Below, in pieces: positions 1,009 through 27,211 of a stretch of 48,335 bases of DNA. The notes under the pieces were generated by a model. That model did no database searches. It saw nothing but the letters and a program-made list of their open reading frames with translations, and was not told where the DNA came from. The DNA comes from a virus (taxonomy: Duplodnaviria; Heunggongvirae; Uroviricota; Caudoviricetes): IMG/VR virus record IMGVR_UViG_3300000292_000047. One strand, given 5' to 3'. Within the stretch, counting starts at the first letter, position 1. Each line of letters opens with the position of its first letter. Both the position numbers and the translations under genes were made by a program.

Positions 1009-1084
1009 TGGTGGCCCCTACCGGATTTGAACCGATGACCGTGCGATTATGAGTCGCCTGCTCTAACCACTAAGCTAAGGGGCC
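1009..1084 (-). tRNA. tRNA with CAT anticodon (Met or Ile2), CCA encoded
   Basis: Minus-strand reading GGCCCCT..CTCATAA..GGTTCAAATCC..AGGGGCCACCA; 7-bp acceptor stem, T-arm ATCGG/CCGGT, anticodon loop CTCATAA. Confidence 0.8.
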
Positions 1085-4466: not shown

Positions 4467-4672
4467 TTATTAATCCTCAAAACTTTATGCCCGGGCGCAA
4501 AAGCACGCGTTTTGTCTTTGCTTATTCGCCAGCCATCCTTGCGCGCCTCTTTTGCACAGCCTGCCCATGACGTACCGATATACTCACCGAAGTCTGGCGA
4601 CTGATATTTACCATTTGTACACTGACGACAATCACAGTAGAGATGCATGGTGTAACTTGCGGCAACAGCCAT
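4463..4672 (-). CDS. Small Cys-rich hypothetical protein
   Basis: ATG at 4670-4672 with AGGAGA SD; 69 aa, HLYCDCRQC...AGC pattern. Confidence 0.4.
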   Translation of the reverse strand: MAVAASYTMHLYCDCRQCTNGKYQSPDFGEYIGTSWAGCAKEARKDGWRISKDKTRAFAPGHKVLRINK

Positions 4673-4673
4673 A

Positions 4674-4865
4674 TCACTCTCCTTTAGTACGCAAGTGGTT
4701 TTTCCAGCGGTTTTGCGCCGCGCTGCGCTTATCTTTGACTCCCTCTCTGGCAATTCCAGAAAATGAAAACAACACCACACGGCGATTGCTAACTCTCAAC
4801 CACTGGCTGGGGTAGCAAAGTCTGTATACACGGGAAATAAGCATCTTTGCTTTACGGTTTTTCAT
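4674..4865 (-). CDS. Small basic hypothetical protein
   Basis: ATG at 4863-4865 with GGGGG SD; stop forms TGATATG junction with next gene. Confidence 0.3.
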   Translation of the reverse strand: MKNRKAKMLISRVYRLCYPSQWLRVSNRRVVLFSFSGIAREGVKDKRSAAQNRWKNHLRTKGE

Positions 4866-5101
4866 CGTTTGCCCCCTGCTTTTCTGCCCTTAACACCATG
4901 CGAGAACCATCATCCAGCTCCCAATTGATTTCACCGCCTTCTGCCATGACAAGATGCCAAACGAGTTGTGCGGCCTCGTTGGTTACATCACAACCGCGAT
5001 CATTGCCTACACGGCGTTTTGTTCCGTCACCTAAATCGCGCATTTTGGCCAACACGATGGTTTTTGATAGCGGTGAAAAACCAAGCTGTAGCCGTGCGGA
5101 A

Positions 5102-5731
5102 TTACTCACTGGTTGCCCCCTGAATACGTTTAAACTCAATTACCCATACCCACGGGTTAGATAGCCAGTTCTCTTGCCCGTAAATACCGCGCCAGATATC
5201 ACCAAAGCCAACGCGATAAACAGCTTCCGGCGGTGTAATCTTGTACGTCGCCGGAGATGCGCCTTCCGCTTTAGCATCTGCCTCGCTCATGTCATGCAGC
5301 CGTTCCACACGCACGTCGGTAATTTCCAGCAAAATACGTGAAGCCCAGCGCGGCATGTGAATCGACGGGGTCCAGCCCTCAGCTGGCTTGCTACTATCTG
5401 AGTAATCAGCCTTGTAATCACACAGTTCAGAAGCCAGAGAGACACCATCTTTGATTTCCTGAATGACATCGTTATCCAGCCAAAAAGCGTTGAATGTTTC
5501 ACGGACCCATATGCGATCACCAACGTTACCGAACGGGCATAAACCATGTTCCGGTGCATCCATAACGTGGGTATAGACACCATTGCGTTTCTTTGTCGGT
5601 TTACGGATAACCAGGCAGTTATCGGCCCTGACATTTTTTACAGGTCGACGAGTCTGCGTCTTCCTGCCTTCGAGGATGGCCCTGACCATCGCATCATTAA
5701 AAATCATGCCGCGCTCTTTCATCTTGCTCAC
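5102..5731 (-). CDS. Hypothetical protein, ASCH-like (start uncertain: GTG 5731 / ATG 5722 / ATG 5707)
   Basis: MIFNDAMVRAILEGRKTQTRR and GDRIWVRETF motifs recalled from ASCH-domain proteins. Confidence 0.45.
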   Translation of the reverse strand: MSKMKERGMIFNDAMVRAILEGRKTQTRRPVKNVRADNCLVIRKPTKKRNGVYTHVMDAPEHGLCPFGNVGDRIWVRETFNAFWLDNDVIQEIKDGVSLASELCDYKADYSDSSKPAEGWTPSIHMPRWASRILLEITDVRVERLHDMSEADAKAEGASPATYKITPPEAVYRVGFGDIWRGIYGQENWLSNPWVWVIEFKRIQGATSE

Positions 5732-6371: not shown

Positions 6372-6416
6372 TGTCGAGGCGTCCTTATACATTTATATAA
6401 ATATATAATTCTATAT

Positions 6417-7516: not shown

Positions 7517-7640
7517 CAGATTTCTCCGGTTTAACCAGGGCGGGTATCGCTCGGTTTCGGGTATAACCATAGGAAATTTTTTCCCACCTGTAAAGCACTT
7601 TTTATATAAATCTATAATTATATATTTATAGATTTTCGAT
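7517..7640. repeat. Copy B of ~105-bp promoter/5'-leader repeat
   Basis: Near-identical to 1-118 and 16999-17108. Confidence 0.85.
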
Positions 7641-11333: not shown

Positions 11334-11360
11334 CTGAAAGCGGGCTAACGCCCGCTTACA

Positions 11361-11460
11361 TGATTATAGATTTATATAATTATATAAAACGCTTTTCATC
11401 CGCCAAAAAGTTGGTTATGCTTACCTCGTTCTATAAATATAGATTTATAGAATTATATAA
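11361..11460. promoter_or_regulatory. AT-rich repeat block upstream of parA (candidate centromere/operator)
   Basis: ttatagatttatataattatataa and ctataaatatagatttatagaattatataa; same motif as in leader repeats. Confidence 0.55.
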
Positions 11461-11483: not shown

Positions 11484-12137
11484 ATGACTATCTCTGTAGG
11501 TATTTTCAACGGAAAAGGCGGCGTAACCAAATCAACAATTGCCCGTGCTTTAGCAGTTGCTTATGCAAAGGCCGGCTGGAATGTATGCCTGATCGATATG
11601 GATGTGCTTAACGGAACGGTAACGCGTTGGGTACAACGCAGAATGGCCAACAATATCGAACCTGCAATCGCGGCGCAGCCGTGCGGCACGCCATCACAAG
11701 TCCAGAAAATCATCGAATCAGAAGTATACGACCTGGTTATCGTCGATGGCGGTGCCTACGCATCTGAATCAGTACCGAAGCTCTCTGAATTTCTGGATAT
11801 GGTTATTTTGCCAACCAGATTCTCTACCGATGACCTAGAAACCACCGTTAACACAGCTCACGGCATCGTTAAAAAGGGTGTGCCAATCAAGAAAATTTGC
11901 ATGGTGTTCTCAGGCGCGGCTGAAAACGAAGCCGACTACATTGAAGCCCAAGAGTACCTAGCTAATACGCCATACTTTGTTGTCGATAAGTACATTCCCC
12001 ACAAGCCAGCTCTGAGCAAAGCTCAGGATAAGGGCTTAAGCCTCATTGAATGCTCATACGTTGCGCCACGCAAAAAGGCAGACGACGTTATTCAGGGGAT
12101 TATCAACCAGCTTGAGGCTCTGACTACTGCCGCGTAA
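11484..12137 (+). CDS. parA: ParA/ParF-type partition ATPase (alternative ATG at 11469)
   Basis: Deviant Walker A GKGGVTKST; MinD/ParA fold; GGAG SD before ATG 11484. Confidence 0.8.
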   Translation: MTISVGIFNGKGGVTKSTIARALAVAYAKAGWNVCLIDMDVLNGTVTRWVQRRMANNIEPAIAAQPCGTPSQVQKIIESEVYDLVIVDGGAYASESVPKLSEFLDMVILPTRFSTDDLETTVNTAHGIVKKGVPIKKICMVFSGAAENEADYIEAQEYLANTPYFVVDKYIPHKPALSKAQDKGLSLIECSYVAPRKKADDVIQGIINQLEALTTAA

Positions 12138-12168
12138 TATATAATTATAGTTTTATAGATTTATATAA
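12136..12168. promoter_or_regulatory. AT-rich repeat block between parA and parG-like gene
   Basis: atataattatagttttatagatttatata. Confidence 0.5.
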
Positions 12169-12650: not shown

Positions 12651-12674
12651 TAAAAAAGGCCCCCGAAGGGGCCT
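12651..12674. terminator. Hairpin terminator, usable on minus strand (bidirectional candidate)
   Basis: aggcccc-cgaa-ggggcct perfect stem; A-run on plus gives U-run on minus. Confidence 0.6.
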
Positions 12675-12679
12675 AATCG

Positions 12680-12802
12680 CTACTTGCTGCTAATGTTTAT
12701 CGTCACATTCAGAGCGTTATCAGTAATCTTCCAACCCTCCCCATGTGGCGTAAACAAAGCCCCAGTAACAACGATAAAAATACACATACAGTATTTTTTC
12801 AT
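12680..12802 (-). CDS. Small hydrophobic peptide (40 aa), candidate type I toxin-like or exported peptide
   Basis: MKKYCMCIFIVVTGALFTPHGEGWKITDNALNVTINISSK; ATG inside track ORF 12680-12862; terminator immediately downstream. Confidence 0.3.
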   Translation of the reverse strand: MKKYCMCIFIVVTGALFTPHGEGWKITDNALNVTINISSK

Positions 12803-13200
12803 TGTATGGCCCTTACAGGCCGTTTCACGGCATCCCCACCGACGAAAACAACGCGAGAGCAAGCACGGCTGCTTGTGCTTGCATGTACGGCAACGGAGAA
12901 TCCTCCCCTAAAGTCGGTGCCCGGGTGCGAATCGGCGGGAAGGTCCACAGGTATTTTACGATTATTTTAAGATTAGTAATAGGAAAGAAATTAAACGAAA
13001 AAACTCGTTTATTTTCACAAAATCAGTAACCTACCCACAATCTGTGAGTTTGCAGGCACAACAAGAATCACAATTTTTTGAAGCATAATAGTGGACTATT
13101 ATTACCTTTTGGGTAAAATTAACTTGCTGCTTGTGCTTGCGTGGTTGTTTATACAACGACGTTATGCTGAAAGGACCGCGAATCCGATCAGCACGAAAGA

Positions 13201-13309: not shown

Positions 13310-13392
13310 CACTTTCCGAGCCGTAGCAAAATCTACGGTCGGGATTGGAACCCCGTAGACACAATGGCGCATACCGCGTTAGCGGTTTTTTT
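13310..13392 (+). ncRNA. Candidate small structured RNA ending at intrinsic terminator, upstream of antirepressor operon
   Basis: TTGACA at 13285-13290; hairpins ccgtag/ctacgg; terminator accgc-gtta-gcggt + T7 (13373-13392); no ORF. Confidence 0.3.
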
Positions 13393-13558
13393 ATGCGTAA
13401 AGCACTGCTACACCCAAATTATGGTGGGGCGTGCGGGGGAGTCGTAAGACTCGCCGGTTCGTCATTGTGTCCGGTAGTTCCAACCCTGCACGTCTCACCA
13501 CCCAATGATTGGAACCTGACGGTGGTGAGTATCCTTAACCTTTAAGGGAATCATCACA

Positions 13559-16998: not shown

Positions 16999-17108
16999 TC
17001 TCCGGTTTAACCAGGGCGAGTATCGCTCGGTTTCGGGCATAACCTTAGGAAATTTTTTCCCACCTGTAAAGCACTTTTTATATAAATCTATAATTATATA
17101 ATTCTATG
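16999..17108. repeat. Copy C of ~105-bp promoter/5'-leader repeat
   Basis: 3 substitutions relative to copy A; SD-proximal end diverged. Confidence 0.85.
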
Positions 17109-18999: not shown

Positions 19000-19260
19000 C
19001 AGGCAAAGCCTGCGTAAGTTAAATAAAGAAAGTCTTAATAAAAGAAAGTGATTTTGCATTTATTTGTTTAGTGCATCTATTATAAAAAACCATTTGCATA
19101 TACATATCAGAACTGTGGATAACTTTATTAGCCGATGCCTGTAAAGGCGATATTTTTGCTGTGTTCAGGTTTAGAGAAAATTAATTTAGATTGTTTTTTG
19201 AACAGATATTTTATTGCGACGTAGATAATCCTCCGGTAAAACCGGATTCATCATTCAGGT
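19000..19260. promoter_or_regulatory. Candidate replication origin downstream of repA (AT-rich, DnaA box)
   Basis: Perfect DnaA box TTATCCACA on minus strand at 19114-19122; AT-rich flanks. Confidence 0.5.
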
Positions 19261-19263
19261 GGG

Positions 19264-20112
19264 TTAATGTTGGAGTGATTTCCAGGTCTTTCTTAACCTG
19301 TTATAACGCTGCTCAACGAGGGATCGTAAATATGCAAGGTCAGCACCAGGATACATGCCATCAGCAAATTCCTGACTAACCTCTCTGGTGATTTGATGAC
19401 GAAGTTCGGCCTCTCCCTTTTCCCGAACAAGACGCGCAGCTCTCTCCGCTGCTTTCTGTTTTGCCTTTATCTCTCTGGCCGTCTTCCTCTGACGCCATAC
19501 ATTCTCCATCTGCTCCTGAATAACAATACGCTTATAATCAGCCTCCGTTATCGCTTTTTTAAGCCGTTCGCTATTCTTCGCATTGAAGTAATTAAGTTTC
19601 TGGCTAACCGCACGTCTCCATGCTTGTTCAGTAATACCAACGGTTTCCAGCAGTTGATCACGAATCTCTATTTTCGCTGGCCAATACTGTTTATTCACCC
19701 GATCCCAGCGACGTTCATAATCAATAAAACCTAACGCTTTCAGTTGCGACAACGCCCTTGTACAGCGCGTTATAGACTTGTTCCCAGCTTCGGATACGGT
19801 AGACAGGCCGCAAAAATCAGCCAACGCCTCAGCACTAGCCAGAACCCGCTTAGAAATGATGTTTACATGGTGCAAAATCGCAGCGATCACAGCATTAATC
19901 GCCCGACGACGATGCTCGTTTATCCGGCGCTTCCGCTCTGACGGTTGATTAACGTAGAACGCAACCTCACACGTAAGATCACGCCCATTAATGCGCTGTA
20001 AAGCATCAGATAACACCAGCGGCAGCTTGTGCGTATGGTGCTTTGGAGGCTGGAACTCCGGCGACAAATTACAAACGTAAGCTGAACGTAGAGACGGCAT
20101 TGGTCTATCCAT
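19264..20112 (-). CDS. repA: IncFII-type (RepFIIA-like) replication initiator RepA; in-frame upstream ATG at 20244 possible
   Basis: RRRAINAVI and GLSTVSEAGNKSITRCTRALSQLKALGFIDYE align by eye with R100 RepA1 (RRRAIDALL, GLATESAAGKLSITRATRALTFLSELGLITYQ); ATG 20110-20112. Confidence 0.7.
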   Translation of the reverse strand: MDRPMPSLRSAYVCNLSPEFQPPKHHTHKLPLVLSDALQRINGRDLTCEVAFYVNQPSERKRRINEHRRRAINAVIAAILHHVNIISKRVLASAEALADFCGLSTVSEAGNKSITRCTRALSQLKALGFIDYERRWDRVNKQYWPAKIEIRDQLLETVGITEQAWRRAVSQKLNYFNAKNSERLKKAITEADYKRIVIQEQMENVWRQRKTAREIKAKQKAAERAARLVREKGEAELRHQITREVSQEFADGMYPGADLAYLRSLVEQRYNRLRKTWKSLQH

Positions 20113-20156
20113 ATGTTCGCTCTTGCGTCCACGGAAAACCAACGTATAATGGGAGT

Positions 20157-20237
20157 TGTCGAGGCGCCCATGGATTGTTGTTGTTGGTTTTCCGTGGATG
20201 TCGCAAGAAGCCCGCAGATTTATCTGCGGGCTTTTTG
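20157..20237 (+). ncRNA. CopA-like antisense RNA countertranscript to repA leader
   Basis: TTGCGT-N16-TATAAT at 20123-20150; strong terminator gcccgcaga-ttta-tctgcgggc + T5 at 20210-20236. Confidence 0.55.
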
Positions 20238-20710
20238 TTTCCATATCTGGTCACTTTCCAACCAGACACCCACAATCATAACCACGTTACGTGGTTTTAA
20301 GAGAACTCTACCACAACACTTTCGGTCATGCACGAAGTCTCTCACTGATCGAACGATAATCCACCAGTAAAAGGATCTAAATTGGATCTCGTTTTGCGAG
20401 CATCATACTACTGGCCTAACTCCAGTCAATGATTCCCAGCCAGAAACCTGCGGTAAACTCATCGTTCAGCAATATGCTGTCCGGCTTCAAAGATAAGGTG
20501 ACATCATCCCTTAACAGCGCGGCCAGTTCAGTTAAAGGGCTGTTCTGATTTAATGCTGGCCACTCATACCTGGTAATAAGTGGTCAGTCTTAACACTCAC
20601 CATTTGATTGCACCCGTGTTGACGATTTGTTACTGGATATCAGACACGCTGGATAGCCAGTAGAAACATACCATTAAAATTATTACAATAATTGGTCACA
20701 TGATTATCTT

Positions 20711-21274
20711 ATGCTGAATAATAAAGATATGAATATTAATGAACTTAAAGACTGTATTCACTATGAAGTAATCGGTAGCGAGCGTCCTTTCTCCTGGCGA
20801 AAGGCAATTGTTCGCGCAATAAAACATAGAAGGGTTCGTTATTTATTTTGGTGGCGCATAGCCAAATACCTTTTTGATAAAGGCGGATACTGTCGGAAGA
20901 TTGCGGGAAAAATAGAACGTTTCATTCTTGATAAATATAATGTAACAGTCCCTTTAACTGTAAATATAGGGAAAGGCTTTGATATTTCTTATCTCAACAG
21001 TGTTGTTATCGGTCACAAAGTAACAATCGGTGAAAATTGTTCAATTAAGCCCGGAGTAACTATTGGACTTCGCGGGGAATTTAATGATATGGATATTGTT
21101 ATAGGGCATAATGTGACCATTGGTTGTAATGCCACCATTCTTGGTGGCAAAGTGCGTATAGGAAACAATGTCACAATAGGTGCTCATGCATTGGTATTGC
21201 ATGATATTCCTGATGATTCAACATTCATCACTAAATTTCAGTCTGAAGTTATCTGCTCGTCCTCCCGAACATAA
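20711..21274 (+). CDS. Hexapeptide-repeat (left-handed beta-helix) acetyltransferase, moron
   Basis: 187 aa; repeated [LIV]-G-x-x-x-x hexapeptides; AT-rich relative to neighbours; 3' end overlaps convergent Tfa gene. Confidence 0.7.
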
Positions 21275-21855
21275 CCCTGATTCATCAGCTCTGGCCATAC
21301 GATATCCGGAGCTGTACTGGTGTCAATTCTACTCACTAATACTCTGTATTTTCTCCAGGAATCCAGTTGTGAATTTTCCTCGTTTGTTGCTATTTCAAGA
21401 TTAACTGCATCCTGCAGAATTGCGATGTTATCTGTTGCTTCCTGGATCAACCTTGCCTTTTTCTCTTCCGCTTCCCGTATCCGAAACAGTTTTTCTGCTT
21501 CCTCATCATTCACCCAGGATACGCCGTCCCACTTCTGATACTCCCCTGCTGGCGACAACCAGGTGACATTCTCTGGTAGCGGTCCGAGTTCAGAAATAAA
21601 CAATGCGTCCCCCGACGCCACGTCATAGACCGTTTTACCACGATGGTCTTCAACAATATTCCACGATTCATTTTCACTGTTAAAAACTGCCACAAAGCCA
21701 GCAGGAATTTCCGGTGGGGCGATATCTGTAGAATTAGCTGGCAGCCCTGTATGAGGTGGAATATATGCGTCACCTTCACCAATAAACTCATTAGTTCCGG
21801 CCAGCAGGTTATAAATTTTTACGGTACGTGATTGTTCACTCATTCTGAATGCCAT
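21238..21855 (-). CDS. Tail fibre assembly protein (Tfa)
   Basis: 205 aa; [42 protein letters not shown] typical enterobacterial Tfa N-terminus. Confidence 0.8.
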
Positions 21856-26747: not shown

Positions 26748-27211
26748 AATAATTTACCTAACGCACTTCTAGTTTTTGACTCTATATTGCCAGCAATATC
26801 AACTAATGCTTCTTTCAGAGAGGTCTGTCCGACTTCCTGTAATTTAATGCCGACGATAATCACTCGTGGATTCCCAGTTGGACCGAAATAAGTCCATGAT
26901 TCCTCTATATCTGTAATTATAAAATTACCAAAATACTGAATACCAATTACAACAGGATTTACTTCCTGAATTGATTGCATTGTCCTAAGTAATGAAAGCG
27001 CAGCCAATGGAACAATGCCAAGTGTTGTATCCAACCGCATATTAAAACTAACTTCATCCAGATCTGGACCTATATCCTCCAGAACAGGTTTAAGCCCAAT
27101 AACATCATGGCGCGCTACACGACGCTTTGACGTCCTTTTAAAATTGTTGAACGTATTCACCACTATTGATGAGGCAACAAAAGGCATTGTACCAAGCATA
27201 CCCACAATCAT
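26744..27211 (-). CDS. Putative baseplate/tail protein
   Basis: 155 aa between V-like and W-like genes. Confidence 0.4.
   Translation of the reverse strand: MIVGMLGTMPFVASSIVVNTFNNFKRTSKRRVARHDVIGLKPVLEDIGPDLDEVSFNMRLDTTLGIVPLAALSLLRTMQSIQEVNPVVIGIQYFGNFIITDIEESWTYFGPTGNPRVIIVGIKLQEVGQTSLKEALVDIAGNIESKTRSALGKLL

Follow-up and report, generated by a model that had tools for sequence, protein, structure and literature searches.

The window, by which we mean the whole 48,335-nucleotide stretch of viral DNA analysed here (IMG/VR record IMGVR_UViG_3300000292_000047), is a ~48-kb Escherichia coli phage-plasmid carrying a repA gene of the IncFII family, and our subject is a predicted antisense RNA encoded opposite the leader of that gene. 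The repA gene lies on the minus strand (19264-20112) and encodes an initiator of 282 aa, or 278 aa if counted from 20100. A first-pass annotation, made from the letters alone, had assigned the gene to RepA and had made its antisense proposal depend on that assignment, which holds (Pfam PF02387, IncFII_repA, E = 1e-43). In alignments, the start region (20098-20112, minus strand) contains a conserved first ATG (20112-20110) and a second in-frame ATG (20100-20098). The first of these has the sequence AAGAG 7 nt upstream and is located directly 3' of a long hairpin in the mRNA. The likely repA promoter, TTGACT-N16-TATGAT (20402-20429, minus strand), agrees with the consensus at 10 of 12 positions, so that the predicted repA leader is ~290 nt long.

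The plus strand carries a pair of promoter hexamers opposite this leader, TTGCGT (-35; 20123-20128, overlapping the repA Shine-Dalgarno region on the other strand) and TATAAT (-10; 20145-20150), separated by a 16-nt spacer. Further along is a terminator hairpin (20210-20240), GCCCGCAGA-TTTA-TCTGCGGGC followed by TTTTTGTTT, which in RNA form reads GCCCGCAGA-UUUA-UCUGCGGGC with the TTTTTGTTT tail. Promoter and terminator both lie where the first-pass annotation had placed them, and on the plus strand we found no gene ahead of the terminator for which it might act. The predicted RNA is ~85 nt long (20156-20240, plus strand), with a probable 5' end at 20155-20158 and a probable 3' end in the U-run at 20238-20241, and its 85-nt form folds at -41.1 kcal/mol (z = -6.4). 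It begins with the segment UUGUCGAGG (20156-20164), the first 7 nt of which are single-stranded, and continues with stem-loop I (20163-20202; GGCG.CCAUGGA / UCCGUGG.AUGUC) and stem-loop II (20203-20240), the intrinsic terminator, which consists of a 16-bp stem, a UUUA tetraloop and the U-run. The perfect inverted repeat that had been described at this locus is also present, although it extends over 16 nt at 100% identity (20128-20143 / 20183-20198) and not 15. With its spacer of 39 bp, it is the sole perfect spaced inverted repeat of at least 16 nt in the 48-kb window, and on the mRNA strand it is lengthened by an 8-bp base helix (20202-20209 / 20120-20127).

Relatives were gathered by protein and DNA searches and divided into group A (RepA 62-100% identical to that of the window), which includes E. 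coli, Escherichia albertii, Salmonella and Klebsiella, and group B (58-60% identical). The antisense unit is conserved as 25 distinct variants, with RepA identity down to 58%. Of 5,426 complete E. coli genomes, 71 carry the unit, on a plasmid every time, and the reference strain ATCC 25922, with plasmid CP009073 / CP117232 and available in most laboratories, is among the carriers. Its relatives are found in Salmonella, Klebsiella, E. albertii and phages isolated on Yersinia pestis. Over the 1.5-kb repA region (19200-20700), plasmid records such as NZ_AP022164 are 100% identical to the window, and the Yersinia phages vB_YpM_39/41/44 are 99% identical over 84% of it. Nearly all motif occurrences (52 of 53) are antisense to a RepA homolog, at 33-537 nt from its aligned start. 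A scan of genome contigs returned Buchnera RepA only, without the motif. The repA promoter is kept in most group A relatives, including Salmonella, and takes the form TTGACG-N17-TAGAAT in one group B locus.

Across groups A and B, the conserved parts of the antisense unit are the promoter, the next ~15 bases (NGGAG(T/G)TGTCGAGGC), the first stem-loop, and the GC-rich terminator with its U-tail, the latter retained on the plus strand only. The -10 hexamer TATAAT is invariant in 25 of 25 variants, and at a distance of 16 or 18 nt, again in all 25, the -35 is kept as TTGCGT in group A and TTGCAT in group B. TATAAT sits on the 3' side of an internal loop of the mRNA, and the 5' side opposite it is hypervariable, the most variable stretch of the locus. 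The 5' segment UUGUCGAGG is likewise invariant except for its first base, which changes from U to G in two variants (L019 and L025). A small open reading frame (ORF) on the antisense RNA (GAGG-N5-ATG at 20170) was considered and rejected, its ATG being missing in L003, L025, L019 and group B.

All variants share a common fold consisting of the 7-nt 5' tail, stem-loop I and the terminator stem-loop II. Within group A, 99.5% of cells in the antisense RNA stems are paired; one pair of stem-loop I is seen as GC, AU, GU and UG, three of its G-U pairs never vary, and one pair of stem-loop II switches from A-U to G-C. Between groups A and B, three pairs of stem-loop II are compensatory. Joint RNAalifold of the two groups recovered stem-loop II only, because stem-loop I aligns poorly between them. 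A covariance model built from group A gave 103 bits for the window (20156-20240, plus strand) and 33-35 bits for group B, and had no match on two RepA loci lacking the motif. The only further match above 13 bits in the window, one of 33 bits at 20201-20275 on the minus strand, falls across the terminator, which is palindromic.

The repA mRNA has a structure of its own. Its long hairpin (20120-20209, minus strand) pairs a 5' arm, here called C' (20183-20209), with a 3' arm, A' (20120-20143), through 28 consensus pairs, three of which have compensatory changes. C' is part of the antisense target, whereas A' lies outside the target and contributes the Shine-Dalgarno sequence AAGAG (20124-20120) to the base helix. 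The apical stem of the hairpin presents a 9-nt loop, CCUCGACAA, which is the exact complement of the antisense UUGUCGAGG and includes a YUNR motif (CUCG). By eye, this loop has no obvious complementarity to the ribosome-binding-site region, and the folding tools used do not predict pseudoknots. Complementarity of the antisense RNA to the leader is complete and runs from the terminator hairpin to the middle of the long hairpin. Upstream of the target, and outside both it and the antisense RNA, is a further covarying hairpin (20242-20268, minus strand) with an ATG at 20244 in its 3' arm, recognized by eye from alignments and unscored. Its arms are GUGUCUGGU/ACCAGAUAU in the window and, by eye, GAUGUUGAC/GUCAGCAUC in Salmonella. 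They differ from lineage to lineage yet seem to pair, also by eye, and some of their G-U pairs work on the sense strand only.

Two further observations concern the sense strand. Termination of the repA transcript at the 20210-20236 hairpin was considered and rejected, as group A has the sense tail UUCUUGCG and group B has UCUGCGG, so that no terminator is conserved. Just downstream of the repA promoter -10 is a pair of GATC sites (20374-20377 and 20385-20388) 7 nt apart, with another GATC at 20347-20350. The GATC-N7/8-GATC layout is retained in most aligned relatives, with a variable spacer sequence, and the pair may link repA transcription to Dam methylation or SeqA.

Which strand this structure serves can be judged from stem-loop I, which contains 2-7 G-U pairs that would be A-C mismatches on the mRNA strand. 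Stem-loop I is steadier on the plus strand in 25 of 25 variants, at a mean of -11.5 kcal/mol versus -4.4 kcal/mol for the reverse complement. This asymmetry, together with the U-tail found on the plus strand only and the invariant TATAAT, argues for a functional plus-strand RNA and not for leader structure alone. We consider it likely that positions 20156-20240 (plus strand) encode a constitutive, cis-encoded antisense RNA of ~85 nt, and that this RNA is what regulates copy number and incompatibility in the phage-plasmid's IncFII-family repA replicon, with both transcription and negative regulation predicted from these patterns.

The best of the competing explanations is that there is no antisense transcript, that the hairpins are a cis structure of the repA mRNA leader (to stabilize the mRNA, to provide ribosome stand-by, or to bind RepA or a host factor), and that the resemblance to a promoter and terminator is a by-product. 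The sense leader is indeed strongly structured (z = -7.5), the long hairpin and the one upstream of it covary on the sense strand, and the evidence for the plus-strand RNA is in silico. We nevertheless find this explanation unlikely, as it accounts neither for the U-tail confined to one strand, nor for TATAAT and TTGCRT held at 16-18 nt amid variable or replaced sequence, nor for the G-U pairs that stabilize stem-loop I on the plus strand alone in every variant.

A second alternative concerns the inverted repeat, which is perfect, has a 39-bp spacer and overlaps the promoter elements, and which could be read as a DNA operator for a dimeric protein (in RepA autoregulation, or for a phage repressor) and not as an RNA element. 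However, the repeat arms, which lie between the conserved blocks, share no sequence between groups A and B and remain complementary all the same, and within group A they change by compensatory substitutions that include G-U intermediates. Changes in the arms with pairing kept are the signature of RNA pairing and not of a conserved protein-binding site, and we regard an operator as very improbable here.

As the duplex between the antisense RNA and its target would end at ~20156, ~45 nt before the AUG, direct occlusion of the ribosome-binding site is unlikely, and the antisense RNA probably acts through a refolding switch in the mRNA. In the free mRNA, the C' arm of the long hairpin would keep the A' arm bound. 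Initial contact would probably bring the antisense 5' tail against the apical loop CCUCGACAA, and pairing of the antisense RNA with C' would then set A' free. The freed A' would be expected to pair with the initiation region, that is, with ATG 20112 and ATG 20100 in the window and with the Shine-Dalgarno sequence in group B. A higher plasmid copy number would in this way provide more antisense RNA and reduce RepA synthesis, and RNase III cleavage of the duplex may contribute.

We examined this switch by making the antisense target unavailable in silico and computing unpaired probabilities in separate windows for the Shine-Dalgarno sequence and the AUG; a first run with one wide window around the ribosome-binding site had been noisy. 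With the target blocked in the window, A' forms a 15-bp helix over ATG 20112 and ATG 20100. The partner segments in relatives (ACCAAUG, CCAGCG, UUCAAC) differ in sequence, with pairing kept by eye. In three group A variants (L003, L013 and L025), blocking lowered the unpaired probability of the start codon from 0.51 to 0.01, 0.82 to 0.01, and 0.90 to 0.00, and in the window from 0.39 to 0.26. In group B it is the Shine-Dalgarno sequence that changes, from 0.60-0.84 in the free mRNA to 0.14-0.26 with the target blocked. If the switch operates as predicted, the locus would provide a clean, naturally occurring case of mRNA refolding driven by an antisense RNA in a replicon of the IncFII family.

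The apical loop of stem-loop I (20174-20188, plus strand) is (TTG)n-like and hypervariable. Among 14 distinct, near-identical E. coli-type segments of 1 kb, 14 of the ~17 loop columns vary. The counts for the adjoining sequence are zero in 61 nt on one side (20113-20173) and one in 65 nt on the other (20189-20253), and 22 columns vary in 597 nt of repA coding sequence. The corresponding loop of group B is likewise variable. This pattern fits a role of the loop as the specificity or incompatibility determinant, and the loop could be used as a typing or incompatibility marker for the replicon.

Several points count against an antisense regulator that works in this way. The -35 hexamer agrees with the consensus at 3 of 6 positions only, because of which a consensus scan did not list the antisense promoter; the terminator was not listed either, because its stem runs into its own T-run. 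Given this -35 fit and the scanner miss, the promoter as seen in a single sequence is not beyond chance, and the evidence for it is comparative. The distance between the end of the duplex and the AUG means that inhibition must be indirect. In the free state, the group A consensus already pairs the Shine-Dalgarno AAGAG with UUCUU, so that the contrast between the on and off states in this group rests mainly on the start codon, and the start-codon contrast is small for both the window and L019. Hypervariability of the stem-loop I loop could result from (TTG)n slippage instead of selection. The strong conservation of the 5' tail is not demanded by cis-complementarity and is left unexplained, and the support for antisense regulation is computational throughout.

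Antisense control has been established for RepA of the IncFII, IncI1 and IncI2 types. In R1, CopA blocks tap; in IncI1, IncB and IncL/M plasmids, Inc RNA works by blocking both a leader peptide and an activator pseudoknot; and IncI2 plasmids have an antisense RNA and the 19-aa RepR (PMC12361487, PMC8053102). With the CopA/CopT/tap system of R1, the window shares an antisense RNA that is encoded in cis, measures ~85-90 nt and has a promoter of its own within the leader of an IncFII-family repA (PMC12361487, PMC8053102). Both RNAs have two stem-loops, the second being the terminator, and both are presumed to be negative, dosage-dependent regulators of RepA translation and incompatibility determinants. 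The window RNA differs from CopA in lacking a match to the CopA model, the CGCCAA/UUGGCG loop, tap and copB. Its terminator loop is a tetraloop of 4 nt, unsuited to loop-loop kissing, and its duplex stops well short of the AUG, at the ~45 nt that make inhibition indirect.

These differences were searched for directly. The Rfam models CopA (RF00042), PK-repBA (RF01089) and PK-repZ (RF01087), run on 19900-20700 with permissive filters, had no match at E <= 10, and the CopA model had no match at its gathering score in the whole window. The recognition motif CGCCAA/UUGGCG is absent from 20100-20400. Between the repA promoter region and the neighbouring gene, there is no conserved or annotated ORF that would correspond to copB. 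Nor does the window contain a separate leader peptide of the tap type: its first ATG (20112) belongs to the repA frame, and the one ORF that stops at the repA start has 56 aa, begins with TTG and is not conserved. A related locus, L018 (RepA 63% identical), served as positive control: its segment 1863-1989 matched PK-repBA at 49.3 bits (gathering score 45) and CopA at 34 bits (E = 1.7e-4), and has the canonical UUGGCG loop, CAACUUGGCGGAAG. As judged from these matches, the closely related initiators of the window and L018 use unrelated antisense cassettes. Sub-threshold Rfam matches on 20124-20243 (Thr_leader, trpB, CsrC and similar) were set aside, as they reflect a generic hairpin-plus-terminator shape.

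The window RNA is thus, by sequence and predicted structure, CopA-like in role and not a member of the CopA family. Of the CopA-like countertranscript of ~80 nt proposed in the first-pass annotation, the part that stands is an antisense RNA in the repA leader that has a promoter and a terminator of its own, which is backed by conservation, covariation and strand asymmetry; the part that falls is kinship with CopA, for want of an Rfam match and of UUGGCG. In silico, the locus has the hallmarks of plasmid countertranscript (ctRNA) copy-number regulators in general: a promoter, an intrinsic terminator and a stable fold, placed antisense to the rep leader and conserved along with the replicon. Neither Rfam nor the literature searched contained a description of this antisense RNA or of the copy-number control of the replicon.

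Other replicons offer partial parallels. The Inc RNA-RepY-pseudoknot systems of IncI1 (ColIb-P9), IncB (pMU720) and IncL/M plasmids also place an IncFII-family initiator under antisense control, and there too the mRNA structure near the ribosome-binding site is decisive (PMC8053102). In contrast to them, the window matches neither pseudoknot model and, as judged by eye, has no apparent activator pseudoknot, and its predicted switch would be repressive, with an arm that sequesters the start region, and would not consist in the loss of an activator. The IncI2 plasmid pHNSHP45, which encodes RepR, resembles the window in that its repA leader harbours an antisense RNA ended by a Rho-independent terminator and lacks a pseudoknot of the IncI1 type, and in placing the start-codon region of the first ORF within a regulatory stem-loop (PMC8053102). 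IncI2, unlike the window, uses a 19-aa leader peptide coupled to repA as well as the ProQ/FinO protein PcnR, and its antisense promoter overlaps the leader ORF, so that the 5' end of the antisense RNA falls beside the ribosome-binding site (PMC8053102).

Mechanistically, the antisense RNA of the window may be compared with systems of other kinds. RNAI of the staphylococcal plasmid pSK41 and RNAI of ColE2 bind well upstream of the ribosome-binding site and alter the mRNA fold. In hok/sok and in RNA-OUT/RNA-IN of IS10, recognition runs from tail to loop: the loop of the target has a YUNR motif and pairs with an end that is single-stranded. The resemblance to the window RNA would be one of mechanism only, the replicons and sequences being unrelated.

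The way in which the cassette is joined to repA varies among relatives. At three group B loci (L027, L045 and L049), the cassette stands directly before a RepA paralog that is 32% identical to RepA of the window; in L027 this paralog is a complete ORF of 274 aa (4672-5496) starting at the conserved ATG. Other group B loci (L015, L016 and L020-L024) have a relic of the paralog, 33-162 aa long, between the cassette and a different repA, and without exception the relic ORF reaches the repA start, either stopping at it or overlapping it. In two lineages of the Salmonella type, the first ATG has become, through a small frameshift, that of a 13- or 46-aa ORF overlapping repA. From these arrangements, direct control of repA, as kept in the window, appears to be ancestral. 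The alternation of intact and relic paralogs is, at the level of sequence comparison, evidence of recombination that would swap initiators behind one control cassette.

The same ORFs bear on the possibility that the unit is a true homolog of R1/R100 CopA-CopT-tap, diverged past easy recognition, in which repA is coupled to a leader peptide that the antisense RNA blocks. In its favour, the initiator is of the same family, position and two-stem-loop design agree, and some relatives have short ORFs (13 or 46 aa) overlapping the repA start while others have one of 33-162 aa ending at or overlapping it. Against this, the long ORFs of group B are relics of a RepA paralog, and in the window, as in L019 and L027, it is repA that begins at the first ATG. 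Moreover, the CopA, PK-repBA and PK-repZ models are silent here at E <= 10, whereas PK-repBA and CopA gave 49 and 34 bits in L018, the UUGGCG/CGCCAA motif is absent, and the recognition elements differ, both in the terminator tetraloop and in the distance of 45 nt from the antisense 5' end to the AUG. We give such homology very little weight.

A further-reaching proposal, which we make tentatively and rate at slightly below an even chance, is that the window encodes the founding member of a so far uncatalogued family of replication-control antisense RNAs, one without homology to CopA or Inc RNA. Such a family would act directly on repA without a leader peptide and would sequester the start by means of a freed mRNA arm. 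Its members would make contact through a 5' tail and a possible U-turn loop, would owe their incompatibility to the loop of stem-loop I, and would form a mobile cassette joined to RepA proteins down to 32% identity. The locus would also provide a natural example of the exchange of control cassettes between divergent initiators.

The antisense unit also affects where repA should be annotated to begin. The first-pass annotation had drawn attention to a minus-strand ATG at 20244, which is present and in frame with a long ORF (19264-20244), and had offered it as the start of a leader or N-terminal extension, an idea that comparison with relatives does not bear out. The complete RepA homologs of 58-85% identity retrieved by the protein search are 274-284 aa long and all start at the equivalent of 20112 or 20100, and on alignment evidence the real RepA start is ATG 20112 (or 20100). 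In RefSeq, WP_224158527.1 (annotated by PGAP in E. coli records) gives RepA 326 aa from ATG 20244, and a Salmonella record is within 274-284 aa. Because ATG 20244 is unconserved, lies in a covarying hairpin and is separated from repA by indels, and because homologs are 274-284 aa long, the 326-aa RefSeq protein is almost certainly an over-extension, by 44 codons, and probably a systematic one. Annotating the antisense RNA would put the RefSeq RepA start right.

A functional RepA extended at its N terminus, or a leader, beginning at ATG 20244 is therefore hardly credible: the frame from this ATG is open to repA in the window and RefSeq annotates it, but the ATG is absent in relatives (ATATGG in the window is GCATCA in Salmonella), sits inside the hairpin, has no good Shine-Dalgarno sequence upstream, and is followed in relatives by indels of +2, -2 and -7 nt before repA, and the Pfam match to the ORF begins only at residue 53. 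Two other ORFs were rejected as well. The 56-aa ORF with a TTG start (20275-20105), which ends just past the repA ATG and has a tap-like look, has an unconserved start and a frame broken by the same +2/-2/-7 nt indels, and an 83-aa ORF from ATG 20171 has neither a Shine-Dalgarno sequence nor homolog support.

Downstream of repA, a perfect DnaA box, TGTGGATAA (the complement of TTATCCACA), occupies 19114-19122, amid an AT-rich stretch ~140 nt beyond the stop codon of repA. This stretch is likely the origin of replication (oriR), a candidate whose position fits the IncFII layout. About 1.5 kb from repA, the minus strand encodes a Gp49/HigB-like toxin (PF05973; 17454-17807), and the adjacent upstream ORF encodes its helix-turn-helix (HTH) antitoxin partner. 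The pair, which is accompanied by small conserved hypothetical ORFs, is likely a plasmid-addiction module.

On the other side, upstream of the repA promoter, the relatives diverge over ~20440-21280. The window has a hexapeptide acetyltransferase there (20711-21274, plus strand), and many relatives have instead an invertase of the Hin/Pin type that adjoins tail-fibre genes. A tail-fibre segment is present in both orientations in NZ_CP032086, a 94-kb record with two copies of the antisense unit. Its gene set is duplicated and its two RepA proteins are identical, so that the record looks like a concatemer or assembly artefact and was not taken as a case of two co-resident variants. The pSLy3 phage-plasmid group was also rejected as a relative, being SSU5-like and unrelated.

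Elsewhere in the window, Rfam matches at gathering score were obtained for ryfA, isrK, the C4 antisense RNA (the immunity RNA of P1/P7 immI type) and a tRNA, at 12652-12948 (minus), 13320-13392 (plus), 13417-13505 (plus) and 1012-1084 (minus). These matches suggest a P1-like immunity module in a phage-plasmid with tail-fibre genes matching P2-like phages. A dispersed and often palindromic motif, AAATCTATAATTATA, has 14 matches at up to 2 mismatches, versus 0.22 expected. Its sites lie at 94-113, 1234-1248, 6399-6413, 7608-7635, 11359-11446, 12135-12154, 17084-17103 and 26907-26921, and together they look like scattered operators for the phage repressor, in the manner of the C1 operators that are dispersed in P1.

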